Shown here: one piece after another, positions 38,701-60,510 of the stretch
How the letters are laid out: every line of letters begins with the position of its first letter
Numbering within the stretch: the first letter of the stretch is position 1
Assembly: GCA_023248955.1 (NCBI GenBank)
Contig: JAHFDP010000011.1
Coordinates: 6,056 to 70,055, forward strand
Length of the DNA: 64,000 nt
Direction: 5' to 3'
Source: Deltaproteobacteria bacterium
Lineage (GTDB): Bacteria > Myxococcota > Myxococcia > Myxococcales > JAHFDP01
The notes under the pieces: generated by a model
Databases searched by the model: none
Told to the model about the DNA's origin: nothing
Seen by the model: the letters and a program-made list of their open reading frames with translations, nothing else
Program-made: the position numbers and the translations under genes

Positions 38701-39098
38701 CTGCGCGGCTGCACGTGTTCGTGAACCCAGCGCACGATCTCCTGCGTGCTCGCGCCGGGCGTAAAAATTTGAGCCACCCCGCGCTTCTTCAGCTCGGTGA
38801 TGTCTTCGTCGGGAATGATGCCGCCTCCGAAAATGGTGACGTTGTCAGCGCCGAGCCGTTTGAGCTCGTTCAGCACATCGGGAAAGAGTGTCATGTGCGC
38901 GCCGCTCATGATGGAGAGGCCCACGCCGTCAACGTCTTCCTGCACGGCGGCGTTGGCGATCATTTCCGGCGTCTGGTGAAGTCCCGTGTAGATGACCTCG
39001 AAGCCGCCGTCGCGCAGTGCGCGCGCAATGATCTTCGCGCCGCGATCGTGCCCATCGAGACCAGGCTTGGCCACGAGAATTCGGATTTTGCGTTCCAT
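38697..39098 (-). CDS. Acyl-CoA mutase small subunit (B12-binding domain)
   Basis: ATG 39098 gives [68 protein letters not shown]. It has the DxHxxG cobalamin motif. Confidence 0.9.
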
Positions 39099-39099
39099 G

Positions 39100-40785
39100 T
39101 TAGTAGGACCCCGCTTCGCGGAACTGCCCCCACACCGCGCGAAACACATCGCAGATTTCGCCGAGCGTGCAGTAGGCTTTCACCGCGTCGATCACGCTCG
39201 GCATCACGTTCTTTCCGTCTCGTGAGGCGCGTTCCACCGCGGCGAGCCGCTCCTTCACCGCGGCGGCGTTGCGCGAACGCTTCACCGAAGCCAACCGCTC
39301 GAGCTGCGCGCGCGTCACCACTTCCTCGATTTTCAGAATTGGGATCGCAGCGCCCTGCGCCGTTTTGAATTTGTTCACGCCGACGATCACGCGCTCGCCA
39401 CTTTCCACTTCGCGCTGATGCCGATACGCCGAGTCGCCAATTTCCCGCTGCGGAAAGCCCTCTTCCACCGCGCGAATGATGCCGCCCATGGCCCGAATCT
39501 TTTCAATATAAGCACGTGCGCGCTTCTCGGTTTCGTCGGTGAGGTACTCGATGAAGTAGCTACCCGCGAGCGGATCGACCACGCGATCGACGCCCGATTC
39601 GTAAGCGATGACTTGTTGCGTACGCAGCGCCAGCGTCACCGACTCTTCCGTCGGCAACGCGTAGGTCTCGTCGAGCGAGTTGGTATGCAGGCTCTGCGTG
39701 CCGCCAAGCACCGCGGCCAGCGCTTGCAATGACGTGCGTATCACATTGTTATACGGCTGCTGCGCGGTCAGACTCACGCCCGCCGTCTGCGCGTGCGTCT
39801 TGAGCATCATCGACCGCGGATCCTTCGCGCCGTAGCGATCCTTCATCTCCCGCGCCCAGATGCGCCGCGCCGCGCGGAACTTGGCGATCTCCTCGAAGAA
39901 GTCGTTGTGCACGTCCCAGAAAAACGAAAGGCCGGGCGCAAAATCATCGACCGCCATTCCACGCGCGATGGACTCTTCCACGTAGCCAAATCCGTCCGCC
40001 AGCGTGAACGCCAGCTCCTGCACCGCCGTCGCTCCCGCTTCACGAATGTGATAGCCGCTGATGGAAACCGGATGCCACTTGGGCATCTCGCGTGTGCAGA
40101 ACTCGATCATGTCGATGACCAGCCGCACCGCGGGCCGCGGCGGAACGATCCACTCCTTCTGCGCGATGTATTCCTTGAGAATGTCCGCCTGAATCGTTCC
40201 ACCGAGCGCCGCGCGCGGCGTGCCGTGCTCCTCGGCCACGGCGATGTACATGGCAAGCGCCACGACCGCGCTGGCGTTGATGGTCATCGACGTGGTGACT
40301 TGGTCGAGCGGAATGCCGTCGAAAAGCACTTCGAAATCGCGCAACGTCGAAACCGCCACGCCCTCTTTTCCTACTTCGCCGCGCGAGAGCGGATGGTCCG
40401 CGTCGTAGCCCATGAGCGCGGGCATATCGAACGCCGTCGAGAGCCCGGTCATGCCGTGCTCGAGCAGATATTTGAAACGCTTGTTGGTGTCCTCGGGCGT
40501 TCCGAATCCGGCAAACTGCCGCATCGTCCAGTGGCGACCGCGGTACATCGTGGCCTGCGGCCCGCGCGTGTAGGGGAACTGTCCCGGAAGCCCAATGTCG
40601 GCGAGATAATTTTCGCCGGCGCGATCGGCGGGCGTCAGCAGATCGGGAATCGGAATTCCAGAATCGGTAGCGAACTGCGCGCGGCGATGCGGAAGTTTTT
40701 TGAGCGAGCCCGCCAAAGCACCCGCGCGCCAGCTCTGTTGCGCTTGGGCGATCGCTTCCAACCCCGACATTTTCGAGTCACTCAT
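39100..40785 (-). CDS. Acyl-CoA mutase large (substrate-binding) subunit, isobutyryl-CoA-mutase-like signature
   Basis: ATG 40785 gives [12 protein letters not shown]...[27 protein letters not shown]...[21 protein letters not shown]... It has Phe in RQFAGF and Gln in IAQKE where methylmalonyl-CoA mutase has RQYAGF and VRNT. Confidence 0.85.
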
Positions 40786-40916
40786 CGGGACCAAGTTTTG
40801 GACTATCGCTGCTCCAAATGCAACGCGCGGGCATGCTCCAGTCAGAGTGGCCACTGCTAAAAGGCGAACAAATTCGTGCGCGGAGATTTGGCTGCGTTCT
40901 TGCTTTGTTAGCCAGC

Positions 40917-41174
40917 ATGCGAATGCCGCCCGCATCTCTGGCGATTCTCGTGCTTGGCTGCGCGTCGCAACCGGCGCCGAAGTTGAGCACCGCCGTGGCG
41001 CCGGAAACCGCGGCGTGCGCGCCCGAAGTCCAGCGTGCCGTCACCGCGCTTTCGACTTTCATCTCGGTTTCACTCACGCGCGCGCAAGACGACGACATCA
41101 CGCAGACGGCCAAAGAAGCTGGCTGGCATCGACATCGCGCTGCTCGTAAACTTCAACGTCGCCCATCTGCGTGA
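40917..41174 (+). CDS. Possible small lipoprotein
   Basis: [22 protein letters not shown] (lipobox), but the C-terminus is Arg-rich and unconvincing. Confidence 0.3.
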
Positions 41175-41273
41175 CGGAATTCGGAGATTTACGTCCCGCC
41201 CCAAAACACCCGGAACCAATCCAAAACCTCACATCCCTTCCCTCCTTCCATCCTCATTGTGAGCTTTTGCTTT

Positions 41274-42419
41274 TCATCCCGCCAAAATCGAGCGCGCGAT
41301 CACGATCCGCTGAATCTCACTCGTGCCCTCATAAATCGTGGTCACGCGCGCATCGCGGAAATACCGCTCCACCGGAAACTCATCGATGTAGCCGTAACCG
41401 CCGTGAATCTGTGCCGCCTTCGACACCACGCGGTTGACCGCTTCACTGGCGAATACTTTCGCCATCGATCCTTCGCGCGTAAAACGGCGCCCCGCTTCTT
41501 TGAGCGACGCCGCACGCAACGCGAGCAACTCCGCAGCGTCCAACTCGGTAGCCATGTCCGCGATCTGAAATTTGATGGCCTGAAAATCCGCAATAGGATG
41601 GCCGAACGCTTGCCGCTCATTGGCGTAGCGCACGCTCGCGGCCAGCGCGGCGCGGCCGATACCCACGGACTGCGACGCGATTCCGATGCGCCCGCCATCG
41701 AGCGCGGCCATTGCGATGCGAAAACCTTCGCCCTCTTTTCCGAGCAGCGCGCTCGCGGGAATGCGGCAATCGGAAAAGGCGAGGCTTACCGTGGTCGAGG
41801 CGTGCAGGCCCATCTTCTCTTCGTGTTTGCCGATCGAAAGGCCGCGCGTTCCGCCTTCGACCAAAAACGCGCTGATGCCGTCGGCGCCTGCTTTTCCCGA
41901 TCGCGCCCACACCACCATCACACCCGCGTGATCGCCGCTGGTGATCCACTGCTTCTCGCCATTGAGTATCCAATACTTACAATCTCGTCGCGCATTGGTG
42001 CGCATGGCCGCGGGATCCGATCCGCATTGCGGTTCCGAGAGCGCGAACGACGCCGCTTCGAAACGCCCGCTGGTCAGCTCGGGCACGTAACGCTTTTTCT
42101 GTTCGTCGCTGCCAAAGCGGCAGATCGTCTCTGCGACCATGTTGGTCACGCCCATCGCCACCGACGTGGACGCGCAAGCTCCGGAGATTTCCATCATCGC
42201 CAGCGCATACGCCACTGCGCCAGCCTCTGCGCCGCCGAGCGCCTCGGGCACGTTGACGCCCATCAATCCGAGGCCGGCCATCTCTTTCAAAAACACCGCG
42301 GGAAATTTCCCTTCGCGATCCGCCTGCCGCGCCGCAGGCGCCAAGCGACGCTGCGCAAACTGGCGCGCCACCTCGCGCACTGCGATCTGCACGTCCGTCA
42401 ATTCGAAGTCATACATCAC
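41274..42419 (-). CDS. Acyl-CoA dehydrogenase (short/branched-chain type)
   Basis: 381 aa. ...SEPQCGSDPAAMRTNARRD...WITSG...IHGGYGYIDEFPVERYFRDARVTTIYEGTSEIQRIVIAR. Confidence 0.92.
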   Translation of the reverse strand: MMYDFELTDVQIAVREVARQFAQRRLAPAARQADREGKFPAVFLKEMAGLGLMGVNVPEALGGAEAGAVAYALAMMEISGACASTSVAMGVTNMVAETICRFGSDEQKKRYVPELTSGRFEAASFALSEPQCGSDPAAMRTNARRDCKYWILNGEKQWITSGDHAGVMVVWARSGKAGADGISAFLVEGGTRGLSIGKHEEKMGLHASTTVSLAFSDCRIPASALLGKEGEGFRIAMAALDGGRIGIASQSVGIGRAALAASVRYANERQAFGHPIADFQAIKFQIADMATELDAAELLALRAASLKEAGRRFTREGSMAKVFASEAVNRVVSKAAQIHGGYGYIDEFPVERYFRDARVTTIYEGTSEIQRIVIARSILAG

Positions 42420-43561
42420 GAACCTTTGAGCACCGCGCTCGAGATCACCAGCCGTTGAATCTCGCTCGTGCCCTCGTAGATCTCGGTGATTTTGGCATCG
42501 CGATAGTGGCGCTCGGCGTCGAACTCTTTGGTGTAGCCGTACCCGCCGTGAATCTGCAGGCCCTTGTTAGCGCAGCGCGTGCTCATTTCGCTGGCAAACA
42601 ATTTCGCCATCGCCGATTCGCGCGAGTGACGCACGCCACGATCTTTCAAGCTGGCGGCGCGGTGCACGAGCAAACGCGCGGCGTCGATCTCGGTGGCCAT
42701 GTCGGCCAACATGAATTGAATCGCTTGCAGCTGCGCGATCGGTTGTCCGAAGGCCTTGCGCTCTTTCGAGTAGTGCAGCGCCTCTTCGTACGCCGCGCGC
42801 GCGATGCCAAGCGCTTGCGATGCGATGCCGATGCGTCCGCCGTCGAGCGTGGACATGGCGATCTTGAAACCGTCGCCCTCGGCGCCCAGCCGGTTCTTCA
42901 GCGGCACCACGCACTCCTCGAAAAAGAGCGAACAGGATCCGCTGGCGCAAATACCGAGCTTTCGATCTTTGTGACCGCGCACCACGCCCGGCGAATGGAG
43001 ATCGACCACGAACGCACTGATGCCTTTGTTGCCCGCGGCGCGGTTGGTCATGGCGAAGAGCACCACCGCGTCGGCTTGCGGGCCGTTGGTGATGAAATTT
43101 TTCGAGCCGCGAATAACGTACGCGTCGCCCTTTTTTTCCGCGGTGGTTTTTTGCGCGGCGGCGTCGGAACCAGCTTCCGGCTCGGTGAGCGCGAAGCAGC
43201 CGAGCTTTTCGCCGGACGCGAATGGAGCCAACCAGGCGCGCTTCTGCTCGTCGTTGCCGTACTTGAGGAGGGGATCGCAGTAGAGCGAATTGTTGACGGA
43301 CATGATCACGCCCGTCGACGCGCAGCCGCGCGAGATCTCTTCCATGGCCACGGCGTAGCCCACGTTGTCCATGCCCGCGCCGTTCCATTCCATCGGCACG
43401 GCGATGCCGAGGAGGCCAAGCTCGGCGAGCTTTGTCACGGCCTCGGCGGGAAAATGCTTTTCCTCGTCCCATTGGCGCGCGTGCGGCAAAAGTTCCGCGG
43501 CTGCAAAATCGCGACAGGTGGTTTGCAGAAGACGTTGCTCGTCGGTCAAATCGATTCGCAT
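42416..43561 (-). CDS. Acyl-CoA dehydrogenase (short/branched-chain type)
   Basis: 381 aa. ...TEPEAGSDAAAQKTTAEKKGD...FITNG...IHGGYGYTKEFDAERHYRDAKITEIYEGTSEIQRLVIS. ATGA-type overlap with the downstream ACAD. Confidence 0.92.
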   Translation of the reverse strand: MRIDLTDEQRLLQTTCRDFAAAELLPHARQWDEEKHFPAEAVTKLAELGLLGIAVPMEWNGAGMDNVGYAVAMEEISRGCASTGVIMSVNNSLYCDPLLKYGNDEQKRAWLAPFASGEKLGCFALTEPEAGSDAAAQKTTAEKKGDAYVIRGSKNFITNGPQADAVVLFAMTNRAAGNKGISAFVVDLHSPGVVRGHKDRKLGICASGSCSLFFEECVVPLKNRLGAEGDGFKIAMSTLDGGRIGIASQALGIARAAYEEALHYSKERKAFGQPIAQLQAIQFMLADMATEIDAARLLVHRAASLKDRGVRHSRESAMAKLFASEMSTRCANKGLQIHGGYGYTKEFDAERHYRDAKITEIYEGTSEIQRLVISSAVLKGS

Positions 43562-45634
<2,073 letters not shown>

Positions 45635-45746
45635 TGGCGGAAAACTAGGAGACGCCCGCGACGAAGGCAAACGCCCCGTATCAACAGACGTTGACGTGAG
45701 CGTTGACGCGCGGCGACGTTGACGGCGACGTGGCCGAGCAGGGGTT

Positions 45747-45955: not shown

Positions 45956-47278
45956 GTGACCGATACTCCCGCACGTTCCGCAGCCGACTTCGGCGCACCG
46001 CTGCTCATCGCTTGGCTGCTCGGCATCTGCGTCACCTTCAATGGTGGCGCGTACCAAAACGACGCACTCTTCTTTTTGGTCCTGGCGCTCGCCGTCGCGG
46101 CATGGCGCTTTGGCGCGCTGCTCGTCGACGCGCACGCCGAACCAACCTCGCCGCGATCAGTCTTGCCGCTCGTTTGGATCGCTCTCTTCGGCGCTGTCTT
46201 TTTTCAGTTCAACGATCCCGTTCCACTGCAACACGCGCACGGTCCGTGGCGTCTCGGCCCCGTGACACAGGTTGGCGCGCTGCTGCTTCTCCTCTCCTAT
46301 TTGCCGTTTCTCGATGGAAGACGCGCCGACTCGACGGCCATGCGCACGTTCCGCTTCTTCGGATTCGCCGCGCTGCTCGTGATCGGCGGAGTTGACATTA
46401 TTCGAACTTCGCCAAATCCGCTGATCGACGTGTGGACCGTGCAAAACGACGGCGCGCGTGCGCTGCTCCACGGGCAGAATCCCTACGTTGTCGTCTCGTC
46501 TGCATGGACTGGCCCACCTCCTGCGCTGCCCTGCCCCTTCGTCTACACACCGCTGCAGCTTTTCGTCAGCACCGCGAGTTACGCGATTCTTGGCGATGTT
46601 CGCTATGCGCTGCTGGCCGCGGTGTTCGTAGCCGGCGTTGCGTTTCGCTCTCTCGCGAAGCCTTCGAATCGAGGCGCGCTGGAGGTGGACGCGCCCGCGC
46701 TAATGCTCTGGCTCTGGCCGAAGCTGCCGATGATTCTCGAAAAGGCCTGGACCGATCCGGTGCCGCTCGCGCTCGTGGCGCTAGCCGTGGTGGCGCGCGC
46801 GCGAGCGCGTTCGCTGCTCTACGCAACGCTGCTCGGCCTCGCCGTGACCTCGAAGCCGACTACGGTATTTCTCATCCCGCTGGCCGCGTTTCTCTTGCCG
46901 CTGCGTCGCCGCGATTGGATTTTTTTCGGCACCGCCGCTGCGCTCCCTCTTCTTCCTTTTGCACTCTGGAATTTCCCCGCTCTCTTCTACGCAACGATCA
47001 CGTTCCAAACGCAGCTTCCGCCACGCGACGACGGCCTCACGCTCGTCACCTGGATGAACCGCACCTTCGAGGCCGGCTGGACTGGTAACGCCGCGTTCTT
47101 GCTCGTCGCGCTGGTGATTGGGGCCGCGCTCATTCGTCTGCGGCGCACGACTTCGTCCTTCGCTTTCGCGCTGAGTGCCACCGCGGCTTACTTGATCTTT
47201 TTCGCGTTCAACAAATGGGCCTTCGCCAACTACTACTTTTTCGTCGCCGGACTGTCGGCGCTGGCGGCGGCCGTATGA
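45956..47278 (+). CDS. Polytopic membrane protein, GT-C-fold glycosyltransferase-like (GT87/DUF2029 or PIG-M-like), paralog 1
   Basis: GTG start, 440 aa, about 10 or more hydrophobic segments. The loop motif is NPLIDVWTVQNDGARALLHGQNPY...FVYTPLQLF. The C-terminal motif is FFAFNKWAFANYYFFVAGL. Confidence 0.75.
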   Translation: MTDTPARSAADFGAPLLIAWLLGICVTFNGGAYQNDALFFLVLALAVAAWRFGALLVDAHAEPTSPRSVLPLVWIALFGAVFFQFNDPVPLQHAHGPWRLGPVTQVGALLLLLSYLPFLDGRRADSTAMRTFRFFGFAALLVIGGVDIIRTSPNPLIDVWTVQNDGARALLHGQNPYVVVSSAWTGPPPALPCPFVYTPLQLFVSTASYAILGDVRYALLAAVFVAGVAFRSLAKPSNRGALEVDAPALMLWLWPKLPMILEKAWTDPVPLALVALAVVARARARSLLYATLLGLAVTSKPTTVFLIPLAAFLLPLRRRDWIFFGTAAALPLLPFALWNFPALFYATITFQTQLPPRDDGLTLVTWMNRTFEAGWTGNAAFLLVALVIGAALIRLRRTTSSFAFALSATAAYLIFFAFNKWAFANYYFFVAGLSALAAAV

Positions 47279-48633
47279 TCGGACCGATCACGATTGTATT
47301 GCGCGCGTTTTCCGTCGCCTGCTTGGCCACGGCGTGCCTCTCCAACTACGGCATGTGGAGCGCAAATGCAGTACCCGCCTACGTTGCCGCGATCGTCGCT
47401 TGGTTCGCCGGCGAGTTCGCGCTGCACAAAAGAATCGCCTTCAGCCCACGGGCGGCCGCCATCTCCTGCGCGGTAATCTTCGCGCTCTTGCAGCTCATCG
47501 CCCTTTTCTCCTCGAAGAATCCCATCGTCTATCCGGTCACTTCGAGCATCAGTCCTTGGTGGTTCCTCGAAGGCGTGGCGTTCGTCGGCGGCGTCCTCCT
47601 CGCCCTTCTGGCCGCGCGATCATCGACGGACAACGCCGGGCGCGACGCATTGGTACCCGCCCTTCTCGCGCTTGGCGTCGCCGTGCGCGTACTCGCGGTC
47701 GCCGCATCGCCGCATCCCACCATCGACGTCTGGAGCGCGCATCAGACCGCCACGCAAATGCTGCTCTCCGGCATCAACCCGTTCACGCACGACATGCCCG
47801 ACATCTACGAGGGCAAAGCACCCGCCGCGCTCGGCTACGCGCTCAAGGCCTACGACTATCCGCCGAGCAATCTCTTTCTCTTCGCACCGTTTGTCGCCGG
47901 GCTCGGCGATTCGCGTTACGCGCTGATCGTCGTCGAGATCGCCGGCCTCGCCATTTTGTGGTGGCGCGTGATTCGCCGCCATCCCGCGCGGGGCGCGCTC
48001 GAGCCGCTGCTCCTCATTTTCTATTTGCAGCCGCTGGCCAGCTTCGCCATCGAACAGGCGTGGACCGAACCGCTCGGTGTCGGATGTGCCGCGCTGCTTC
48101 TCGCGTTCGGCTCCTCGGGCGCCTCCAATGCAGTGCTGGCACCGCTGCTCGGTGCACTGCTTTCGCTCAAACAGTACTTCATCCTCCTCGGAAACCTTGC
48201 GCTCCTCGCGCCGCGCAAATTGGCCGCGCTTGCCGTTGCGGTGGCACTCGCCGCGCTGACGCTCTTGCCATTTCTCGCCAGCGATCCGCGCGCCCTTCTC
48301 GAAGCGCTGTCGCAACCGTCGCGCATTCCCTACCGCGCGTTCAACTTGAGTCTCAACAGCCTGCTCGATCACACCTTCAAGGTCCATCTGCCGATCACAC
48401 CGATCGTCATCGCCGCAACGGCGATCGGCCTTCTCTTTCCGCTTTGGCGATCACGCGTGGGCCGCCCGCTGGGTGAGCGAATCTGGGCCTGGAACACGTC
48501 GGTCTACTTGACGCTCTTCGCGCTGACCTTCGGCTTTTTCAACTACCACTATCTGGTCGGCGCGATGATGGTGCTGGCCTCAGTTTCCGAGGGCGCGAGC
48601 ACGATTTCCAGAGCAGGAACAGCGCGTGCGTAA
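47275..48633 (+). CDS. GT-C-like polytopic membrane protein, paralog 2 (most divergent)
   Basis: ATG 47275 (ATGA overlap with paralog 1). HPTIDVWSAHQTATQMLLSGINPF...YDYPPSNLFLFAPF. The C-terminal motif is degenerate (FGFFNYHYLVGAM). Confidence 0.72.
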   Translation: MIGPITIVLRAFSVACLATACLSNYGMWSANAVPAYVAAIVAWFAGEFALHKRIAFSPRAAAISCAVIFALLQLIALFSSKNPIVYPVTSSISPWWFLEGVAFVGGVLLALLAARSSTDNAGRDALVPALLALGVAVRVLAVAASPHPTIDVWSAHQTATQMLLSGINPFTHDMPDIYEGKAPAALGYALKAYDYPPSNLFLFAPFVAGLGDSRYALIVVEIAGLAILWWRVIRRHPARGALEPLLLIFYLQPLASFAIEQAWTEPLGVGCAALLLAFGSSGASNAVLAPLLGALLSLKQYFILLGNLALLAPRKLAALAVAVALAALTLLPFLASDPRALLEALSQPSRIPYRAFNLSLNSLLDHTFKVHLPITPIVIAATAIGLLFPLWRSRVGRPLGERIWAWNTSVYLTLFALTFGFFNYHYLVGAMMVLASVSEGASTISRAGTARA

Positions 48634-49976
48634 AAGCTCGTCGACGCCGCCAACGCGGCAAGACCGAGCACGAAAAAGTAGTAGTTGGCGAATGCCCATT
48701 TATTGAAAGCGAAGAAAAAAAGATAAATCGTCGCGGACGCGATCCCGAGGCCGAACACACCACGCCGTCGGAGCGCCCAAGTTCCCACACCCGTCAAGAC
48801 CGCCGCCAGCACGGTCCCCACGGCTCCCGGTATCGCAATGTGAGCCACGTTAGCCGCCCAGGCATTAATGGTTAGCGCGTCTGCGCGCGGCGGCAGCGAA
48901 AGTTCGAAATCGATCACCGCATGACGAAGTGCGGCGAAATCCCATAGCGCAAATGGAATGGCCGCAGCAGCGCCGGCCACGACTGCGCCGATCCATTGCC
49001 GCGCGCGAAATTCGAGCAGCACCGCCCCAAGCGGAATGAGCCAAAGCATGCTCTGCTTGGAGGAGACGGTCAGCCCCAACAGCGCCGCCGTGAGCAGTGG
49101 CCGTCGCGCAAGATGCGCGCGAATCGTCATTGCGAAAAGCGCAAGTTGAATCGGATCGACCCAGGCCTGCTCGAGGATGAAAAAGAGCTTCGGCGAAAGC
49201 CAGAGGTAGAGGGTGGGTGCGTCCTCGACGAACGAAAGCAGCGGCCAACCGGCGCGCCGCGCGATGCTGCGAAGACAAAAGCCCGCGATGAGCATCGCGA
49301 TCAACAGGGTGAAGCGCACGTCGCCACCAAGAAGATGGCCCGCCAACGACAAGAGCGCTTGCGTGGGCGGATAGACGAAAGGAACGAGAAACGTGCCGCG
49401 ATCGGTGTCGTGCGTGGCAACGTGCGTGTAGGGATTCTGGCCGTGCTCGAGTGCGATTGCGCTCTGCGTCTGAAGCGTCCATACGTCGATGCGCGGCGCG
49501 GGCGAAGCGTAGATCGCATCGACGCCCGCGAGGAGCGTGGCCACGGCGAACGCTGCAAATCGCGCGGTCCGCAGCCGCGAAGACACCGTTCGCCAACCCG
49601 TAATCTCGGGGATGTAGCTCGCAAGAAGCAGGAGCGAAGCAACTTGCGCGGTCCGTCCCAACCGCCACGGACGAATCGCGTACATGAGGACATCATCGTG
49701 AAGCGCGATCCCCGCGAACACCAGCAACCCTAGAAAAGCCGCGATGAGCATCGCGCGTGGCCACGGTGCAGTTTGCCGACGCGGCCAGAGCGCAGCGGAA
49801 AATTGCCAACCCAAAATGGCGAGCGTGGCGGCCACGAAAAAAACAGCGAGCGGATGATACGAGCCGGACGCGACGCTTATCGAAACGCTTGCGCACAGGC
49901 TGGCCATGAGCGCGGGAACAAAGCCTTGCGGCAGTTCCAGCGGCCGAGCGCTCGACGCGGCGGGCGTGGCGTTCAT
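48549..49976 (-). CDS. GT-C-like polytopic membrane protein, paralog 3 (inverted orientation)
   Basis: ATG 49976 gives MNATPAASSARPLELPQGF... APRIDVWTLQTQSAIALEHGQNPY...FVYPPTQALLSLAG...FFAFNKWAFANYYFFVLGL. By eye it is about two-thirds identical to paralog 4. Confidence 0.75.
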   Translation of the reverse strand: MNATPAASSARPLELPQGFVPALMASLCASVSISVASGSYHPLAVFFVAATLAILGWQFSAALWPRRQTAPWPRAMLIAAFLGLLVFAGIALHDDVLMYAIRPWRLGRTAQVASLLLLASYIPEITGWRTVSSRLRTARFAAFAVATLLAGVDAIYASPAPRIDVWTLQTQSAIALEHGQNPYTHVATHDTDRGTFLVPFVYPPTQALLSLAGHLLGGDVRFTLLIAMLIAGFCLRSIARRAGWPLLSFVEDAPTLYLWLSPKLFFILEQAWVDPIQLALFAMTIRAHLARRPLLTAALLGLTVSSKQSMLWLIPLGAVLLEFRARQWIGAVVAGAAAAIPFALWDFAALRHAVIDFELSLPPRADALTINAWAANVAHIAIPGAVGTVLAAVLTGVGTWALRRRGVFGLGIASATIYLFFFAFNKWAFANYYFFVLGLAALAASTSFYARAVPALEIVLAPSETEASTIIAPTR

Positions 49977-50061
49977 GTCGGCGTTGTGGCACGGGGTGCG
50001 GAGGCTGTGCAACAACAGCCAAGCGCCTCCCTGTCAAGTGTTCGGGGAAATAGGGTAGTAA

Positions 50062-50187
50062 CCGTTCAGTTCGTCATGGCCGGGCTTGACCCGGCCATCC
50101 ACGGGGATTCCGATGCACGCGGATGGCCTCCCCGGGCTTGACCCGGGGATCGGCGGCCGGCCATGACGGGTGTGCCAGACTGAACGG
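50062..50187. repeat. Complete REP/MITE-like element, family 1, with 9-nt terminal inverted repeats
   Basis: CCGTTCAGT TCGTCATGGCCGGGCTTGACCCGGCCATCCACG ... CCCCGGGCTTGACCCGGGG ... CCGGCCATGACG GGTGTGCCAG ACTGAACGG. It lies in the spacer between divergent paralogs 3 and 4. Confidence 0.85.
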
Positions 50188-50219
50188 ATACATAGCGTAT
50201 TCTTCCCCCGAGCCCACTC

Positions 50220-51638
50220 TTGCCATCGTCGACCACTCCTCCAACGGTGTTGCTTCCACCCGCGCTCTTGCCGGCGCTCGTCGGCGGTTTCGTGGTGACC
50301 TTCGCGGTCCTTCCCGCTTCGCGCGAAACGTTTCCTTACGCCGCCGCGGTCGTCGCACTGGTCACCGCGCTCGCAATCCCGCTCCTGCTCTGGGCCAGCG
50401 GCAGCGTCTTGTGGTCGCGCGCGCCGATGCGAATGCCGCGCCTTCTGCTCGCCATTCCGTGGGGCGGTCTCGTTCTCTTCGTTTTACGTGCGTTCAACGA
50501 CCGCAGTCTTCTGACCAGCGCCACGACCGATTGGCGCCTGGGCCGCTCTGCCGAAGTTGGCGCGTTGCTGCTGCTCTGCACGTATCTACCAGCGATCGTC
50601 TGGGGCCGCGATGAATCGCCGCGTTTTTCTCGCACGCGGTTCGCCGCCTTCGCGCTGCTCACACTCATCGCCGGTATTGAAACGATTCGCATCGCTCCGC
50701 TTCCCACCATCGATGTGTGGACGATTCAAAACGCGGGCGCCACCGCGCTGGAACATTTTCAAAATCCCTACACGACCGTCACGCAGGCGGACACCGGCAA
50801 CCTCGGCGATCTCACCGTGCCTTATGTCTATCCGCCCACGCACGCCATCCTGTCCCTCTTGGGCGACCTGCTCGGCGGCGACGTGCGTTTCACCATGCTG
50901 CTCGCCATCCTGATCGCTGGACTCTGTCTGCGCGACATCACGCGGCGATCGGGCTGGCCTCTGCCTTCCTTCGTGCTCGACGCACCCGTACTTCTCTTTT
51001 GGCTCACGCCCAAACTTTTTTTCATTCTCGAGCAGGGCTGGATCGATCCGATCCAGCTGGCGCTCTTCGCTCTTTCCATCAACGCGCATCTCGCACGCCG
51101 CCCCATGCTCACCGCTGCGCTGTTGGGTCTCACCGTCTCCTCGAAGCAGAGCATGATCTGGCTCATCCCCATGGGCGCGGTGATGCTGCAATTTGGCGCG
51201 CGGCAATGGCTCGTCGCGGCAGCCACCGGAGCGGCCGCCGCGATTCCCTTCGCGCTTTTGGATTTCACGGCGCTGCGCCATGCGGTGATCGATTTCGAAT
51301 TGTCGCTTCCGCCGCGCCCGGATGCCATCACCGTCAACGTCTGGGCCGCGCGCGCGTATCACATTGCAATACCGGGTGCGGTGGGCACGGGACTCGCCGC
51401 GCTGGTGACCGTCCTCTCGAGCTGGTTCCTGCGCCGTCGCGGTGTGGCCGGGCTCGGCATCGCGGCGGCTGCCACCTACCTTGTTTTTTTCGCGTTCAAC
51501 AAATGGGCCTTCGCCAACTACTATTTTCTGGTGGTCGGACTTTGCGCGACCGCCGCGGCAACCGCGTTCCATGCCATGCCGGCGCGCGCGAGCGTGCAGA
51601 GCGCACCCGAAGATAAAATTCGAGCGAGCGGGACTTGA
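50220..51638 (+). CDS. GT-C-like polytopic membrane protein, paralog 4
   Basis: TTG start in the ORF track; the exact start is uncertain. LPTIDVWTIQNAGATALEHFQNPY...YVYPPTHAILSLLG...FFAFNKWAFANYYFLVVGL. Confidence 0.75.
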   Translation: MPSSTTPPTVLLPPALLPALVGGFVVTFAVLPASRETFPYAAAVVALVTALAIPLLLWASGSVLWSRAPMRMPRLLLAIPWGGLVLFVLRAFNDRSLLTSATTDWRLGRSAEVGALLLLCTYLPAIVWGRDESPRFSRTRFAAFALLTLIAGIETIRIAPLPTIDVWTIQNAGATALEHFQNPYTTVTQADTGNLGDLTVPYVYPPTHAILSLLGDLLGGDVRFTMLLAILIAGLCLRDITRRSGWPLPSFVLDAPVLLFWLTPKLFFILEQGWIDPIQLALFALSINAHLARRPMLTAALLGLTVSSKQSMIWLIPMGAVMLQFGARQWLVAAATGAAAAIPFALLDFTALRHAVIDFELSLPPRPDAITVNVWAARAYHIAIPGAVGTGLAALVTVLSSWFLRRRGVAGLGIAAAATYLVFFAFNKWAFANYYFLVVGLCATAAATAFHAMPARASVQSAPEDKIRASGT

Positions 51639-51639
51639 G

Positions 51640-52551
51640 ATGACACCAACCAACTGCACCATCTGCGGCACCGCCATCGAACCACGCTTTTCCGACGTGC
51701 GCGATCCGCAATCGGGAGAAGCCTTCGCCATTGAAGCCTGCGCCTCGTGCGGATTGGGTCACACTTCACCGGTGCCTGAAAACCTCGGTCGCTACTATGG
51801 CGCCGCCTACTACGGTGGGCGGCACGGATTCACCGCGCGTTACTGCGCGCAGCGCCGCTGCGGATTTCTCGAACGCGCGGCCGGAAAAAGTGGACGGCTC
51901 CTCGACATCGGTTGCGGCGACGGAACTTTTCTCGCGGCCGCCAAAGAAAGAAACTGGACCGTGGCCGGCACGGAGCTTGGCCCCAACGCCGATCGCGCGC
52001 GCGCCCAGGGCCTAGACGTGCGCGAGTCGCTCACCGATTTCGAGCCGCCCTTCAACGCCGTCACCATGTGGCACACGTTGGAGCACTTCACCCAGCCACT
52101 TGACATTTTGAGTCAAGCGCATCGGCTGCTCGATTCCAACGGCGCCTTGATCGCGGCGGTTCCCGACGCAGGCGGCTTGCAAGCCGCGATGTTCGGCGCG
52201 CGCTGGTTTCATCTCGACGTCCCGCGCCACCTGCACCATTTTGATCGCCATTCACTGGAAGAGTTGCTCAAGCGCGCCGGTTTTGCGGTCGAACGTTGGC
52301 ACCACCAAGAGTTCGAATACGATCTCTTCGGGTGGTTGCAGAGCGCGCTCAACACCATGATGCCGGCGCCCAACGTGCTCTTCAACAAGCTCACGGGAAA
52401 ACCTTCCCGCGCCGGAGCTGCGCAAGTGGCCACGAGTTTTCTCCTCGGTGGATTACTCGGTCCCTTGGCACTTGGCGCGACAGCCGCGGGGACGCTCGCT
52501 GCGCGCGGAGGAACGCTGATCGCTGTCGCGCGAAAGAGGAGCGAAGCATGA
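51640..52551 (+). CDS. Class I SAM-dependent methyltransferase with N-terminal CxxC...CxxC zinc ribbon
   Basis: ATG 51640, 1 nt after the paralog 4 stop. MTPTNCTICGTAIE...ACASCGLGHT...RLLDIGCGDGTFLAAAKERNW...MWHTLEHFTQP. Confidence 0.85.
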   Translation: MTPTNCTICGTAIEPRFSDVRDPQSGEAFAIEACASCGLGHTSPVPENLGRYYGAAYYGGRHGFTARYCAQRRCGFLERAAGKSGRLLDIGCGDGTFLAAAKERNWTVAGTELGPNADRARAQGLDVRESLTDFEPPFNAVTMWHTLEHFTQPLDILSQAHRLLDSNGALIAAVPDAGGLQAAMFGARWFHLDVPRHLHHFDRHSLEELLKRAGFAVERWHHQEFEYDLFGWLQSALNTMMPAPNVLFNKLTGKPSRAGAAQVATSFLLGGLLGPLALGATAAGTLAARGGTLIAVARKRSEA

Positions 52552-53780
52552 CCGATCTCGTTTGTCGTGGAATCGTAATCATCGTCCTTGCGGTCGGGTG
52601 TGGCCCCGGCCCAACGCCGTACAACGGAAGCGCGGGCACGCCGAGGTCAATCATTCCGGACGCGGGAACCAACGGCACAACGGATGGAGGCCCCGCCGAC
52701 GCCGGAATTTCCAGCGATGACATTTTTCGAATCGCCCCGCACTCGCCCTTCCCAGCGCTAACGTTTCACAAAGGACTGGTTCTCTCCTCGGTGAAGCTCG
52801 TCACCATCACCTTTGCAAACTACGAATACGCGTCCGATGTGGAAGCGCTCGGCGACTTCCTGGTCGGTTCGGACTGGATGACGGCGGCGGGAAAGGACTA
52901 CGGCGTCGGATTCGGAACGCACTTGGCAAAAGTGCGCCTCGACGAACCGGCACCGACCACGATTTCCGACGTGCAGCTCCAAAAAAAGATCGTCGACTGG
53001 ATCGCCGCGGGCACGGTTCCACCGCCGGAGGCCAACGCCAATCAGGTGCTCTATCTGGTCTATTTTCCGAGCACGACCACCGTTCTCGACGAAGCGAGCG
53101 ACCCGCTCTGCACCGGCCCGCTCGACGGCTACCATTCCACTGTCAAAGCCAACCACGACGGTACTAAATATACGATACCCTATGGCGTTATCGCCCACTG
53201 CCCACAAGAGACCTCGACAAATGCGCAAGTCACGGTCCTCGCTTCGCACGAATTTATCGAAGCCTGCACTGACCCGACCGTCACCCCAACGTCGGGAACC
53301 GGCTGGTTTCTCGACACACCGGACACCGATTCGTGGCCCACCAATCTCGAGGACGCGGATCTCTGCGAACGCGACCATCTGCGCCTTGGCGGCTTCGAGC
53401 TGACGCGCGCTTTCTCCAATTCAGCGGCCGCGCAAGGCATCAGCCCCTGCGTTCCCGCAGTGCCGGGCGAAATTTATTTCAACGTCACCGCTGACCCGAC
53501 AACGAAGTTGCAGCTCGCGCCAGGCGCGACCGCGCAGGTCACGCTGACTGGTTGGTCAACGGGTCCGCGTAATGCTTGGGACCTCTCCACCGAGATCGTG
53601 GGTCAGTTCGAACTACAGGCGAGCCTCTCCGCGAGCAAAATAAAAAACGCGACGACAGTGACGCTGACGTTGACCGTGCCTCAGAGCGCGATGAGCGGCG
53701 CCGAGGCGGTAGCGAAAGTTTGGAGCGGCCCGGTGGATTTTCCAACGCGCTATTGGCCGGTGGGTGTCAGGGTGAAGTAG
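52548..53780 (+). CDS. Lipoprotein with Cys-rich SHEFIEACTDP domain (paralogous to the N-domain of 35196..36812)
   Basis: ATG 52548 (ATGA overlap). MTDLVCRGIVIIVLAVGCGPG (lipobox). VLYLVYFPSTT...CTGPLDGYHSTV...VIAHC...LASHEFIEACTDPTVTPTSGTGWFLD. C-terminal beta-rich module. Confidence 0.75.
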   Translation: MTDLVCRGIVIIVLAVGCGPGPTPYNGSAGTPRSIIPDAGTNGTTDGGPADAGISSDDIFRIAPHSPFPALTFHKGLVLSSVKLVTITFANYEYASDVEALGDFLVGSDWMTAAGKDYGVGFGTHLAKVRLDEPAPTTISDVQLQKKIVDWIAAGTVPPPEANANQVLYLVYFPSTTTVLDEASDPLCTGPLDGYHSTVKANHDGTKYTIPYGVIAHCPQETSTNAQVTVLASHEFIEACTDPTVTPTSGTGWFLDTPDTDSWPTNLEDADLCERDHLRLGGFELTRAFSNSAAAQGISPCVPAVPGEIYFNVTADPTTKLQLAPGATAQVTLTGWSTGPRNAWDLSTEIVGQFELQASLSASKIKNATTVTLTLTVPQSAMSGAEAVAKVWSGPVDFPTRYWPVGVRVK

Positions 53781-53811
53781 GCGCTCCTTTCTCCCCCGCA
53801 ATGGGAGGGGA

Positions 53812-54561
53812 CTACCTCGCCGAGCCGTACGGCTTCTTCTTCCACGGCGGCCGCTTGAACGCCGCACCCACCGTGCGCGCCGTGTACGCAAACAGTCCCG
53901 GCACGTTCACCGACGAGCTCTGCCCCTCGTAACGCACCGGCACCGGCACTTCCGCAACGCGAAAACCAAACATCACGCAGTCCATCAAAATGTCACTCGC
54001 GAAGGCGTGCGTGTCCGGATACGTCTCCAGCGGCAACGCCTCCAGCACGCGGCGGTGGTAGGCGCGCATCCCGCTGTGCCACTCACCAAACGTCACGCCG
54101 AACCACATGTTCTCGAAGAGTGTCAACGCACGATTGCCGAGATAACGGTAGAGCGGCATCCCGCCCGCCAGCGACTCATCGCGGCTGCGAATGCGGTTGC
54201 CCTGAATCACGTCGAAGTGATCGCGCGCGATGTATTCGACGAGCACATCGGCGAGCGACGGCTCGTACTGATAGTCGGGATGCACCTCGACGACGACGTC
54301 GGCGCCCTGCCGCAACGCTTCGCGGTAGAGGCGCTTTAAGTTTCCGCCATAGCCAAGATTCTTTTCGTGCGTGATGACCTGCAAGCCAAGCTCCTCCGCG
54401 AGCCGCGCCGTGTCGTCTTCGCTCACATTGTTGCCGAGCAAAATATTTTTTCGCAATTCTTGCGGCACCGCCGCCACCGTCTTCGCGAGCGTCTTGGAGA
54501 CGTTGTAGGCCGGCATGGCCACGATGACTTTCAAAGGACTTTTTGAATTCATGGTGCGCAC
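53812..54561 (-). CDS. Family 2 glycosyltransferase, polyprenyl-phosphate sugar synthase-like (DPM1/GtrB-like, soluble)
   Basis: KVIVAMPAYNVSKTL...ILLGNNVSEDDT...NLGYGGNLK...VVVEVHPDYQYEP...GNRIRS...SGMRAYHRRVLE. Collinear with GT2, but with NN for the usual DD and HPD for DAD. Confidence 0.8.
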   Translation of the reverse strand: MRTMNSKSPLKVIVAMPAYNVSKTLAKTVAAVPQELRKNILLGNNVSEDDTARLAEELGLQVITHEKNLGYGGNLKRLYREALRQGADVVVEVHPDYQYEPSLADVLVEYIARDHFDVIQGNRIRSRDESLAGGMPLYRYLGNRALTLFENMWFGVTFGEWHSGMRAYHRRVLEALPLETYPDTHAFASDILMDCVMFGFRVAEVPVPVRYEGQSSSVNVPGLFAYTARTVGAAFKRPPWKKKPYGSAR

Positions 54562-54564
54562 ACT

Positions 54565-55812
54565 CTACGCCACATCCAGCGGCGCCGACGCGACGCGTGG
54601 CTCCGGCAAGGGCACGAGAAATTTTCCGCCCGCACGAAGGTACGGCGCCTGTTGCCGCGCGATCTCGTCGAAGAAATTCCAGGCCAACATGAAGAGATAG
54701 TCGGGCTGATGTTTGGTCACCTCGTCCGGCGACACCACGGGAAGATGAATGCCCGGCATCTTCTTGCCCTGTTTATACGGACTGCGATCAGCCACGAAAT
54801 CGAGCAGCTCACTACCGACGCCGCAGTAGTTGAGCAGCACCACACCCTTGGCCGCCGCGCCGTATCCCGCGAGGCGATGGCCGCGGCGTTTCAGATCACC
54901 GAGAAAATTCGGAATGCGTTCCTTCAAGTGCCGCGTTCCTTCCGCGAAGCGCAAGAGCGGCTCGATTCCGCGGTAGCCCGCCACCTGCTCCGATCCCAGG
55001 TATCGGCCCACCGCGGGCCGCGCGAGCGCACCAGGCTTGCGCGCGCGCGCGATGAGCGAACCGCCGTGCAGACGAATGTCCTCCACGTCCCACAGCACCA
55101 GGCCCGCCTGAGCGAACAAACGCTCGAGCATGGTGACCGAAAAATAGGAGAGGTGCTCGTGATAAATCGTGTCGAACTCTAAGTTCTCGACCATCTCTTT
55201 GAGATAGGGAACCTCGACGTGCAGGATGCCGTCATCCGCAAGCCAGCGACCCGCCGCGCGCACGAAATCGATCGCTTCCGGCACGTGCGCGAGCACATTG
55301 CGCGCAAGGATCAACCGCGCTGGACCGTATTCTGCGCGCAATGCGTCGCCCGATTTCGAATCGAAAAATTCAGCGATCGTTGGCACGCCCACGCCGTTGG
55401 CGACTTCGGCGATGTTCTTCGCCGGCTCGACCCCGAGCACACGGCAGTGCTCTTGAAAGGGCCGCAAGATGCAGCCATCGTTGCTCGCCAACTCCACGAC
55501 CAGGTCGTTTTTCTTGAGGCCAAATTCGCTCGCGTAGCGCGCGGCCAGCGACTCGCCGTAGCGCACGATCGTCTCCGACATCGAGGAGAAATAGATGTAG
55601 TCGGTGAAGACGTCGCGCGGGTCGAGCATGTGTGTCAGCTGCACATGCGTGCATGCGCTGCAAAACGCCACCGCCAGCGGATGGCCCTGCTCGGCGGCGA
55701 TCTCCTGCGGCGTGGAGAGAAAACTGTTCACCGGCGGCATGTCGCCGAGCGAGAGAAATTCTTCCAGCTTCGACGAGCCGCACAGGCGGCAGAGCGAGAC
55801 TCGGGTGGCCAT
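54565..55812 (-). CDS. NDP-hexose C-methyltransferase family (TylC3-like: zinc ribbon, SAM MTase, C-methyltransferase C-terminal domain)
   Basis: ATG 55812 gives MATRVSLCRLCGSSKLEEFLSLGDMPPVNSF...FCSACTHVQL...VVELASNDG...GYGAAAKGVVLLNYCGV...DRSPYKQGKKMPGIHLPVVSPDE...DYLFMLAWNFFDEI. Confidence 0.82.
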   Translation of the reverse strand: MATRVSLCRLCGSSKLEEFLSLGDMPPVNSFLSTPQEIAAEQGHPLAVAFCSACTHVQLTHMLDPRDVFTDYIYFSSMSETIVRYGESLAARYASEFGLKKNDLVVELASNDGCILRPFQEHCRVLGVEPAKNIAEVANGVGVPTIAEFFDSKSGDALRAEYGPARLILARNVLAHVPEAIDFVRAAGRWLADDGILHVEVPYLKEMVENLEFDTIYHEHLSYFSVTMLERLFAQAGLVLWDVEDIRLHGGSLIARARKPGALARPAVGRYLGSEQVAGYRGIEPLLRFAEGTRHLKERIPNFLGDLKRRGHRLAGYGAAAKGVVLLNYCGVGSELLDFVADRSPYKQGKKMPGIHLPVVSPDEVTKHQPDYLFMLAWNFFDEIARQQAPYLRAGGKFLVPLPEPRVASAPLDVA

Positions 55813-55822
55813 GGGATCCTTT

Positions 55823-56680
55823 TTACGACAGAAACGTCGCGCGCTCACCAGCCAGAATATCGGAGAGCGGCGGTTGATGCAGCGCGTGGCGCTCGCTGCG
55901 TAAGACGACCTGCTCGGGACGCGGCGCAACCTGCCCCGCTTCGCGCTCGGAAACCTCCTCGATGCGCAGCGGTGGAAGCACGAGGCTCTTCGCGATGAGT
56001 CGCGCCCATTCTGCTTTCGTAAGCGGCTCGTCGCCGGTGAGGTGCACGATGCCCGTCATTTTTTCGTCGAGCAGCGTGAGCACGGACGCGGTGAGCCATC
56101 CTGTCCATGTCGGACAACCTGCTTGCGCCCGCGGCAACTTCAGCGATTCGCCTGCGCGGGCCGCGGCGATCACGCGGTAAGCGAAATTTTTCTTGGCGAG
56201 CTCGGCACCGAAGACCCACGCGGTGCGAACCACGAGCGCATTCCCTCGCGCGAGCAGAAGTTCTTCCGCCGCGCGTTTGTGGCATGCATAGATACTCAGT
56301 GGATGGACCGCATCGCGCTCGACAAAAAAGGGCTTCGTTCCATCGAAAACATGATCGGTGGAAAAAAAGAGCGCCGTGATTTTCGAACCCGCGAGCACTT
56401 GCACCACGTTGCGAATCGTCGCCACGTTTTCACGTTCACTTCGCGCGGGATCGACTTCGCAACCATCGACGTGGGCATACGCCGCACAGAGCGCCACGTG
56501 CGTCGGCTGCACCGCGTCAACGACACGTTCGAGATCAGCGCGCGACGAAAGATCCAGAGCGGCCGTCGCCTCGCCACGCAAACGTCGCGCAACGCCGATC
56601 GCGTCGACTCCCTGCGCACGCGCACGGCGGCAGAGCTCTCCACCAACCAGGCCGGAGGCGCCGACGACCAGCAACTTCAT
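55823..56680 (-). CDS. NAD(P)-dependent sugar reductase, dTDP-4-dehydrorhamnose reductase (RmlD)-like
   Basis: ATG 56680 (ATGA overlap). MKLLVVGASGLVGGEL...FFSTDHVFDG...IYACHKRAAEE (YxxxK). Confidence 0.8.
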   Translation of the reverse strand: MKLLVVGASGLVGGELCRRARAQGVDAIGVARRLRGEATAALDLSSRADLERVVDAVQPTHVALCAAYAHVDGCEVDPARSERENVATIRNVVQVLAGSKITALFFSTDHVFDGTKPFFVERDAVHPLSIYACHKRAAEELLLARGNALVVRTAWVFGAELAKKNFAYRVIAAARAGESLKLPRAQAGCPTWTGWLTASVLTLLDEKMTGIVHLTGDEPLTKAEWARLIAKSLVLPPLRIEEVSEREAGQVAPRPEQVVLRSERHALHQPPLSDILAGERATFLS

Positions 56681-57544: not shown

Positions 57545-58690
57545 TTACGCCAAAAGATTCCGCGCAATCACCATCCGCTGAATCTGGCTGGTCCCCTCGT
57601 AAATCTGCAAAAGCTTGGCATCGCGCATCAGCTTTTCGACCGGATATTCCGTGGTGTACCCATACCCGCCGAAGATCTGCACCGCATCGGTGGTCACCTG
57701 CATCGCGCTGTCCGCACCGAACGCCTTGGCATACGACGAGATCACTGAATCGATCTTCCCCTCCCCGATCATCCAAGCCGCTTTCTGCATCAAGAGCCGC
57801 GTGGCCTCGTACTTCATGGCCATCTCCGCGAGCATGAACTGCACCGCTTGGAACGTGGCGATCGGCTGACCGAAGGCTTTGCGCTCCTTGGCGTAAGCCT
57901 TGCTCTCGTCGAGCGCGCGCCGCATCACGCCGCACGCCGCCGCCGCAATCCACGGCCGCGAACGATCGAACGTCATCATGGCAATCTTGAATCCCTGCCC
58001 CTCTTCGCCGACCAGATTTTCTTGGGTCAACTTCACCTCGTCGAAGAGCACGTCGGTGGTCAGGCTGGCGCGCTGGCCCATCTTGTCTTCTTTGCGGCCC
58101 ACCGAAACACCCGGCAAGTCGCGCGGCACCACGAACATGCTGATGCCCTTGTGGCGATCCTTCACGTCGCCGAGCCGCGCGAGCACGGTGTACCAGCTGG
58201 CCTTGCCGCCATTGGTGATCCAGCGTTTTTGGCCGGTGAGCGTGTAGCCGTCCGCCGTCTTGCGCGCGGTGGTGCGCAGGCCCGCCACGTCGCTGCCCGC
58301 ATCGGGCTCGCTGCAGCAGTAGGCTGCGTAGATCGGCGATTCGGTGAGCGCGCCGAGGTAGCGCTGCTTCTGCGCGTGGCTGCCGGCGATGATCAGCGGC
58401 AACGCGGCCAGATTGCTCGCGGCGAGCGTCGTACCGATTCCGGTACAGCCGTAGTTGATCTCTTCGAGGAGAAGACAGTGATCGAACGTGGAGAGTCCGA
58501 GGCCGCCATACTCGCTCGGAACTTCCGCGTTCATGAGGCCGAGGTTCCAACCGGCTTTGCAAATCTCGTCGGGGAAGGTGCCGTGCTTGTCGAGCTCGGC
58601 GGCCACCGGAATTATTTTTTCACGCGTGAATTTGCGCGCGGTCTCGACGAGTTTTTCTTGTTCTTCGGAGAGCGAGAGGTCGAAGGGCAT
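57545..58690 (-). CDS. Acyl-CoA dehydrogenase (medium-chain-like)
   Basis: 381 aa. ...[24 protein letters not shown]...WITNGG...[39 protein letters not shown]. Confidence 0.92.
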
Positions 58691-58722
58691 GGCCGTCGAT
58701 TAGCACCTGCCCGCGGCGCGGT

Positions 58723-59685: not shown

Positions 59686-59697
59686 CGATCGCGAAGA

Positions 59698-60480: not shown

Positions 60481-60491
60481 GAAATCCTATC

Positions 60492-60506: not shown

Positions 60507-60510
60507 AATC

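Follow-up and report, generated by a model that had tools for sequence, protein, structure and literature searches.

The window analysed here is a 64,000-nt stretch of a Deltaproteobacteria bacterium of the Myxococcota (assembly GCA_023248955.1, contig JAHFDP010000011.1, positions 6,056 to 70,055), and our subject is a group of four adjacent genes in it, called A, B, C and D, which encode predicted membrane-bound glycosyltransferases. An earlier note on this DNA had claimed four open reading frames (ORFs) of 440-475 aa at positions 45956 to 51638 of the window, and all four were found there (Table 1). For B, a longer ORF begins at 47215, and the ORF of C reaches to 50015. The first 4 nt of B coincide with the last 4 nt of A, B and C are convergent with an 85-nt overlap of their 3' ends (48549-48633), and a 243-nt spacer separates the divergent genes C and D. 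The tails of B and C within the 85-nt overlap are not conserved in the family described below. C and D share 59-64% identity, and A is 41-44% identical to both. B shares 23-30% with the other three, a similarity that is significant (tblastn of B versus A: E 1e-14). In a neighbour-joining tree, A, C and D grouped with four or five other proteins in a small subclade, and B formed a long branch. Searching the window by tblastn revealed no fifth copy. We conclude that A, B, C and D are true paralogs and that all four are intact genes.

The earlier note had described a motif around IDVW, a (F/Y)(V/D)YPP motif downstream of it and a C-terminal motif in three of the four proteins. IDVW is exact in all four paralogs; A, C and D also carry the C-terminal motif FFAFNKWAFANYYF unaltered, and B has a degenerate form of it (LFALT-FGFFNYHY). 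This part of the description stood; the finer consensus needed small corrections, as the 'WxxQ' and 'ALL' positions are lost in B, C and D read ALE instead of ALL, and A has YTP at the YPP position. The motifs were conserved in 100-159 homologues from other organisms and are therefore more than a chance resemblance. Six residues (D165, Y204, P206, R223, K309 and P343, in the numbering of D) were invariant in alignments of 136 and 159 members, and all six are retained in A, B, C and D. Q310, W274, R366, F431, N433 and Y434 are among the near-invariant residues. The near-invariant Lys in the FNK motif is missing from B, as are several further family-typical residues; in its first periplasmic loop, B is similar to the wider family.

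We modelled the structure of D with AlphaFold2, using a 21-sequence alignment. The model reached a mean pLDDT (predicted local distance difference test) of 91.4 and a pTM (predicted template modelling score) of 0.92, and contained ~16 mostly hydrophobic helices, in agreement with the many hydrophobic segments that had been noted. When the model was compared with the PDB by Foldseek, the 17 best matches were all proteins of the GT-C fold, the best ones with probabilities of 0.98-1.00. The top match was the Candida glabrata glycosylphosphatidylinositol (GPI) mannosyltransferase I, Gpi14/PIG-M (9wno_A; E 1.3e-4, TM score 0.49/0.56, 348 columns, 13% identity), followed by three PIG-U chains of GPI transamidase (E 5e-4 to 1.2e-3). 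PimE (9dm5) matched with E 1.4e-3 and a TM score of 0.53, and further GT-C matches were ArnT, STT3, ALG12, ALG3, ALG9, EmbB and ALG6. All matches below E 0.4 had the GT-C fold; the first others were cytochrome oxidases, from E 0.6 and with probabilities below 0.1. The three families that had been named as the nearest ones (PIG-M, PIG-U and PimE/GT87) thus lead the list, and D falls among GT-C glycosyltransferases and not among transporters, which had been named as the alternative. Because only GT-C-fold proteins top the list, the assignment is borne out, and on the strength of this model we are confident that A to D have the GT-C fold.

The IDVW Asp had been expected on the extracytoplasmic side, and it is predicted to face the periplasm from the positive-inside rule and from fold homology. 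The stretch that enters the helix ahead of IDVW contains 2-4 Arg per ~13 residues in each paralog, as would suit a cytoplasmic side, and the ~40-residue stretch from IDVW to YPP contains 0-2 Lys/Arg in A to D, with family-wide counts in agreement; the position of the Asp is that of the catalytic Asp of PimE. The GT-C core is preceded by four extra N-terminal transmembrane helices (16-34, 41-65, 74-93 and 106-128 in D, within residues 1-133), an extension common to all aligned family members (alignments of 21 to 159 sequences). The motif of the earlier note is predicted to lie in an extracytoplasmic loop, but since four helices stand ahead of the core, this loop comes after the fifth helix and is not the first one in the literal sense. 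For the same reason, the 12-helix architecture of GT87, with the catalytic loop between helices 1 and 2, is not matched. Modelled in isolation, the N-terminal four-helix module reached a pLDDT of 72 and a pTM of 0.46, and Foldseek gave a best match of E 1.8, with EmrE appearing only at E 6-7.5. We also considered the module as a fused GtrA-like flippase, which found no support (no Pfam GtrA match and no structural match to DPMS/GtrA).

In PimE, D58 at the tip of juxtamembrane helix JM1 serves as catalytic base, Y92 is indispensable, K195 is salt-bridged to the polyprenyl phosphate, and W319, H321 and H322 complete the donor site; the catalytic loop comes after the first transmembrane helix, and the first periplasmic loop lines the acceptor side (PMC12041525). 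In the model of D, a transmembrane helix is immediately followed by the first juxtamembrane helix (165-178), which D165 opens. As a positional comparison only, D165, Y204 and K309 are spaced by 39 and 105 residues, versus 34 and 103 for D58, Y92 and K195 of PimE. The FNKWAFANYY motif follows ~120 residues past the Lys, where PimE has W319-H322, again as a matter of position only.

A word-indexed search yielded 20 relatives, all annotated as 'hypothetical' with the exception of one labelled GT87. An exhaustive profile search returned 4,960 cluster representatives with E<=1e-3, of which 2,286 reached E<=1e-30, and we define the family clusters as these 50%-identity clusters (~2,300 at E<=1e-30). 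Among GTDB species genomes, 340 stretches encode a relative. The hosts are Myxococcota (Archangium, Cystobacter, Myxococcus, Corallococcus, Polyangiaceae), Planctomycetota including Tepidisphaeraceae, Chloroflexota, Acidobacteriota, some Actinomycetota (Pseudonocardia) and others; the best matches to D, with only 45-47% identity, come from Polyangiaceae and from metagenome-assembled genomes of Myxococcales. The window, too, is of metagenomic origin (an assembly in ENA). NCBIfam scans of A to D and their relatives gave no family, tblastn of D against a plasmid collection gave no match, and we found no description of this family or locus in the literature on GT87/DUF2029, GT-C enzymes and myxobacteria. 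The view that no identical locus had been characterised was upheld in the Pfam, NCBIfam, PDB, plasmid and literature searches. A to D belong to a large bacterial GT-C family that is unnamed and unannotated.

Weak sequence matches among the relatives go to GT-C families only. GT87 matched 12 of 100 relatives at E<=0.01 (best E 1.6e-7), and two proteins, P0018 (31 bits) and P0022 (34 bits), lie above the Pfam threshold; ALG3 matched two relatives, and PIG-U (PF06728) matched one of 21 (E 0.021). Some relatives of ~950 aa (P0021, P0022, P0059 and P0103) consist of two tandem GT-C modules, which points to recurrent duplication of the gene. The first half of P0022 has no four-helix extension and passes Pfam GT87 (33.9 bits), and it may bridge this family and classical GT87.

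The paralogs and their five neighbours, nine genes in all, fill the whole of 45956-56680. That sugar-modifying genes lie next to the paralogs had been stated before and proved right: the neighbours include a GT2 glycosyltransferase, a sugar 3-C-methyltransferase, an RmlD-like reductase and an S-adenosylmethionine (SAM)-dependent methyltransferase (Table 1).

Table 1. Features of the locus, in positions of the window (NDP, nucleoside diphosphate)
Feature	Position	Strand	Description
Paralog A	45956-47278	+	440 aa, GT-C-fold membrane protein; IDVW nt 46424-46435 (Asp158); universal Lys300 46853-46855; FFAFNKWAFANYYF 47198-47239
Paralog B	47275-48633	+	452 aa, divergent copy; IDVW 47722-47733 (Asp151); Lys299 48169-48171; C-terminal motif degenerate
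Paralog C	48549-49976	-	475 aa; IDVW 49479-49490 (Asp164); Lys307 49056-49058; C-terminal motif 48675-48716
Paralog D	50220-51638	+	472 aa, copy modelled; IDVW 50709-50720 (Asp165); Lys309 51144-51146; C-terminal motif 51486-51527
SAM-dependent methyltransferase (Methyltransf_23)	51640-52551	+	N-terminal Cys-rich ribbon, hydrophobic C-terminal tail; coupled to D
Predicted lipoprotein	52548-53780	+	Lipobox LAVGC, weak Ig-like match; last gene of D operon
Soluble GT2 glycosyltransferase	53812-54561	-	249 aa; best family matches polyprenyl/dolichyl-phosphate sugar synthases
NDP-sugar 3-C-methyltransferase	54565-55812	-	Methyltransf_13, Methyltransf_23 and Methyltransf_14 domains
RmlD-like NDP-4-keto-sugar reductase	55823-56680	-	TIGR01214 165 bits, below cutoff 224; first gene of minus-strand operon

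The minus-strand operon runs from the RmlD-like gene through the C-methyltransferase to GT2 with gaps of 10 and 3 nt, and converges on the D operon. The 3-C-methyltransferase matched PDB 4rv9 (MtmC) with E 1.9e-88, and also KijD1 and TcaB9. For the GT2 protein, the best NCBIfam matches were PpgS (E 4.8e-18), AglJ, Dol-P-hexose transferase and ArnC. The predicted lipoprotein could be an acceptor or accessory protein; a homologue beside the family was absent from all 79 related loci of our synteny survey, and its membership of the system is therefore uncertain.

In the same survey, which followed a recommendation of the earlier note to look at the locus in related genomes, 42 of the 79 loci, spread over several phyla, had a homologue of the window GT2 no more than 6 kb away from the GT-C gene, and a GT2 of the GtrB/PgfS/ArnC type adjoined the GT-C gene in three more. 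The linkage of GT-C and GT2 genes is thus conserved. Cultured relatives with the pair of GT2-methyltransferase and GT-C include Archangium gephyra and Cystobacter fuscus (loci L068, L069 and L077). In ~28 loci, GT2 and Methyltransf_23 form one fused ORF, and in the closest relatives a Methyltransf_23 gene directly follows the GT-C gene. The pair of C-methyltransferase and RmlD-like genes recurs in six Myxococcota loci. Most related loci hold one GT-C gene and a few hold two. In a Polyangiaceae locus, L002, which is the one closest to the window, the genes for RmlB, RmlA, an RmlD-like protein, a C-methyltransferase, a GtrB-like protein and GT-C stand in a single row.

Several other membrane proteins were seen in these surroundings. 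Besides genes of the CDP-glucose pathway, L002 (2038-4152, 14318-15466 and neighbours) also encodes a PIG-V-like mannosyltransferase (PF04188, 26 bits versus a cutoff of 22.4) and a membrane protein of 704 aa that has a TMTC/PMT-like 'DE' loop and matches nothing in Pfam. In Myxococcaceae and Archangiaceae, a polytopic membrane protein is encoded directly 3' of the GT-C gene (1139-3379 of locus L021, with homologues in 17 loci); it shows a 'DSD' motif in an early loop, finds no family in Pfam and may be a further GT-C-like enzyme. At the locus of the close relative P0003, a 123-aa ORF lies just upstream of the GT-C gene, after genes for an NTP-transferase and an epimerase/dehydratase, and is a candidate small membrane partner.

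We propose, with a probability of about 0.7, that A to D are inner-membrane GT-C glycosyltransferases of a periplasmic glycosylation system of the Gtr/Ppm1-PimE type, which would use a lipid-linked donor, probably a methylated deoxy-sugar, and yield an envelope glycoconjugate. The GT2 enzyme would load a sugar onto polyprenyl phosphate at the cytoplasmic face. In this branch of the family the sugar is probably a 3-C-methyl-6-deoxyhexose, made from an NDP-4-keto-6-deoxyhexose that the 3-C-methyltransferase would methylate and the RmlD-like enzyme would reduce. The Methyltransf_23 enzyme possibly adds an O-methylation; given that SAM is cytoplasmic and that Methyltransf_23 is fused to GT2 in many relatives, it should act before flipping. 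The lipid-linked sugar would then be flipped across the membrane. In the periplasm, A to D would transfer it from the polyprenyl-phosphate donor to acceptors, with the invariant IDVW Asp as presumed base and with the invariant Lys (SSKQ) and the C-terminal FNK(W/Q)AFxNYY region holding the donor phosphate. A polyprenyl-phosphate-sugar is the most likely donor, judging from the linkage to a synthase-like GT2 in 42 of 79 loci plus three. The presence of four copies suggests different acceptors or linkages, so that one glycan may be built or decorated stepwise.

Several observations weigh against this proposal. At the sequence level, the curated models do not accept the proteins: Pfam GT87 (PF09594) matched D with E 0.0015 and 18.8 bits versus a cutoff of 25 and did not match A, B or C, and Pfam PF05007 (PIG-M) matched neither A to D at E<=10 nor 100 relatives at E<=0.01. 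The resemblance to GT87, PIG-M and PIG-U that the earlier note had drawn is carried by the structure search and turned down by the curated GT87 and PIG-M models, and A to D resemble GT87 and GT50 but fail curated membership of both. Among the PDB sequences, no GT-C chain was hit by HMMER profiles built from 4, 21 or 136 family members, and searches there with single GT87-positive relatives (P0018 and, of P0022, the N-terminal half) gave no match. The sole PDB match of the 21-member profile, a 3'-5' exonuclease (E 1.3), was dismissed as a chance match. The profile searches do not reach PimE or other GT-C chains of the PDB, and we infer the equivalence of D165 and K309 with D58 and K195 from spacing and predicted secondary structure, not from superposition.

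The gene content raises objections as well. Every NCBIfam match of the window GT2 is far under its equivalog cutoff; with 65 bits versus a cutoff of 370, it is not a PpgS orthologue. No flippase of the GtrA, MATE or SMR type is encoded among the nine genes, and no flippase-like gene or small membrane-protein cluster is conserved across the 79 loci. RmlA, RmlB or any other 4,6-dehydratase was not found in the window, so the sugar precursor must come from elsewhere. The C-methyltransferase/RmlD pair is missing from most loci of the wider family, and the C-methyl sugar may therefore feed another step. Finally, PIG-U, the second-best structural match of D, is not an enzyme.

This last point leads to the idea that some or all of A to D are non-catalytic and, like PIG-U, would hold a lipid-linked glycan or serve as the scaffold of a complex. 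Ranks two to four among the structural matches are taken by PIG-U chains, and B has lost the FNK Lys together with other typical residues, yet the six universal residues, with the loop Asp and the Lys among them, are present in every paralog, and linkage across phyla to a GT2 resembling polyprenyl-phosphate-sugar synthases is a signature of active GT-C enzymes. We regard a non-catalytic role as improbable. More improbable still is a function as transporters, flippases or polymerase/ligase-type proteins; such a function could be suggested by polytopic proteins with no curated family assignment in a locus with no recognisable flippase, but no transporter, Wzy, WaaL or RodA-type structure occurs among the significant Foldseek matches, and the N-terminal four-helix module on its own gave no match better than E 1.8.

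It is less easy to set aside that A to D are real GT-C enzymes acting in parallel, either by transferring the same sugar to different acceptors or as partly redundant, recent duplicates. The clade of A, C and D is small and lineage-specific and contains few other proteins, and the 59-64% identity of C and D suggests recent duplication; the low copy number at related loci and the existence of tandem-fused doubles fit this picture, as does the first periplasmic loop, which is the most variable region of the conserved core among A to D. In contrast, translational coupling of A and B and a single set of donor-making genes for all four paralogs fit one pathway, and where several mycobacterial GT-C enzymes share one donor they act sequentially (PMC3485146). 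We therefore consider parallel action a real possibility, though a doubtful one, and by analogy with the mycobacterial enzymes we prefer the inference that A to D would act stepwise.

A bolder combination of these ideas is that A to D represent a new and widespread GT-C family between GT87, PIG-M and PIG-U, whose members would use a methylated lipid-linked sugar, in this myxobacterial branch a polyprenyl-phospho-3-C-methyl-6-deoxyhexose. The N-terminal module would replace a flippase or the membrane partner of a GT2 that has no transmembrane helices, and the paralogs would build a new periplasmic oligomer or lipoglycan step by step, possibly on a phosphatidylinositol-type anchor as for the three closest structural relatives. 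Taken as a whole, this combination is tentative and rather unlikely. We know of no GT-C enzyme for which the use of a donor like this polyprenyl-phospho-3-C-methyl-6-deoxyhexose has been demonstrated.

The proposed system of periplasmic GT-C glycosyltransferases has likenesses to several known ones. The best structural neighbours of the D model are GPI mannosyltransferase I (PIG-M/Gpi14, GT50) and PIG-U. PIG-M has a DXD motif in its first lumenal loop, whereas the loop of A to D reads P-x-I-D-V-W with a single acidic residue; PF05007 does not match, the proteins are bacterial, and no partner resembling Pbn1/PIG-X is evident. In mycobacteria, PpgS (Rv3631) and the GT-C protein Rv3779 add galactosamine to arabinogalactan. 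The window GT2 likewise has no transmembrane helices and a length of ~250 aa, has PpgS as its best NCBIfam match and is paired with GT-C proteins, but these belong to a different family from Rv3779.

The likeness to PimE/GT87 and Ppm1 consists in the GT-C fold, with GT87 as the only Pfam family that gives recurrent weak matches, in an invariant Asp that starts the first juxtamembrane helix, and in Tyr and Lys at PimE-like spacings. Mycobacterial lipomannan is assembled sequentially by several GT-C enzymes fed by Ppm1 (PMC3485146). MptA/B/C and PimE work in steps with the polyprenyl-phosphomannose that Ppm1 makes. Several GT-C paralogs fed by one lipid-linked sugar of GT2 origin, as in mycobacteria (PMC3485146, PMC12041525), are proposed here from the genes. 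Unlike PimE, A to D lie under the GT87 threshold or do not match it, the HMMER family profile misses PimE, four extra transmembrane helices stand ahead of the core, and the setting is a member of the Myxococcota, outside the actinobacterial cell wall. The partner GT2 also differs from Ppm1 in being PpgS/AglJ-like and linked to methyltransferases, and the donor is probably not plain mannose. Three-component periplasmic systems, of the Gtr type and the GT136 pentofuranose system of Citrobacter, combine a cytoplasmic polyprenyl-phosphate sugar synthase with a GT-C enzyme that acts outside the membrane (PMC11127046). A to D share with the Gtr-type (GtrA/GtrB/Gtr) arrangement a synthase-like GT2 encoded together with GT-C, a linkage seen in 45 of 79 loci. 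In contrast to that arrangement, the locus and its surroundings contain no flippase gene of the GtrA, MATE or SMR type, four GT-C genes are present instead of one, a methyltransferase is integral and often fused to GT2, and genes for a C-methyl deoxy-sugar are attached.

Some further observations concern the surroundings of the locus. The glycosylation island of ~10.7 kb is flanked on both sides (36986-45670 and 57545-61544) by acyl-CoA dehydrogenase, enoyl-CoA hydratase, HMG-CoA lyase and methylmalonyl-CoA-mutase-type genes. Across the locus and its flanks, the G+C content is even (0.62-0.64), giving no compositional sign of recent transfer or insertion. A hairpin resembling repetitive extragenic palindromic (REP) elements, CCGGGCTTGACCCGG, occurs in the window in five exact copies and in two with two mismatches, with 0.38 expected by chance. 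The exact copies lie at 50074-50168, 2499-2513, 34935-34949 and 60519-60533 (-), and the two-mismatch copies at 19340 and 19493. Two copies of CCGGGCTTGACCCGG sit inside the divergent spacer of C and D, within a larger palindrome, GTCATGGCCGG...CCGGCCATGAC. A promoter and terminator scan of the locus gave counts no higher than the shuffled level and was uninformative. The predicted lipoprotein of the D operon (+, LAVGC) and a second predicted lipoprotein at 35196-36812 (-, IGAC) share 28% identity over ~150 aa and have no family assignment; the second contains a Ser/Pro-rich linker that looks like an O-glycosylation region.

GT-C enzymes build mycobacterial lipoglycans, O-antigen decorations, protein glycans and the eukaryotic GPI and N-glycan precursors. 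The logic of a GT-C enzyme served by a GT2 synthase is already known; what is new here is an unnamed GT-C family with an N-terminal four-helix extension and a GT2-methyltransferase partner, present at this locus in four copies together with genes for a branched deoxy-sugar. Annotation resources leave ~2,300 clusters in at least five phyla unnamed, despite a confident GT-C fold, and the recurring partnership with GT2-methyltransferase marks the family. Our reading as a whole is a well-supported prediction and not demonstrated chemistry. If confirmed, it would bring a CAZy-type family and a class of lipid-linked donor (a methylated and/or branched deoxy-sugar) that are both new, together with an undescribed envelope glycoconjugate of myxobacteria and other soil phyla. 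It would also make bacterial relatives of PIG-M and PIG-U open to genetics, with a bearing on the origin of the eukaryotic GPI machinery.

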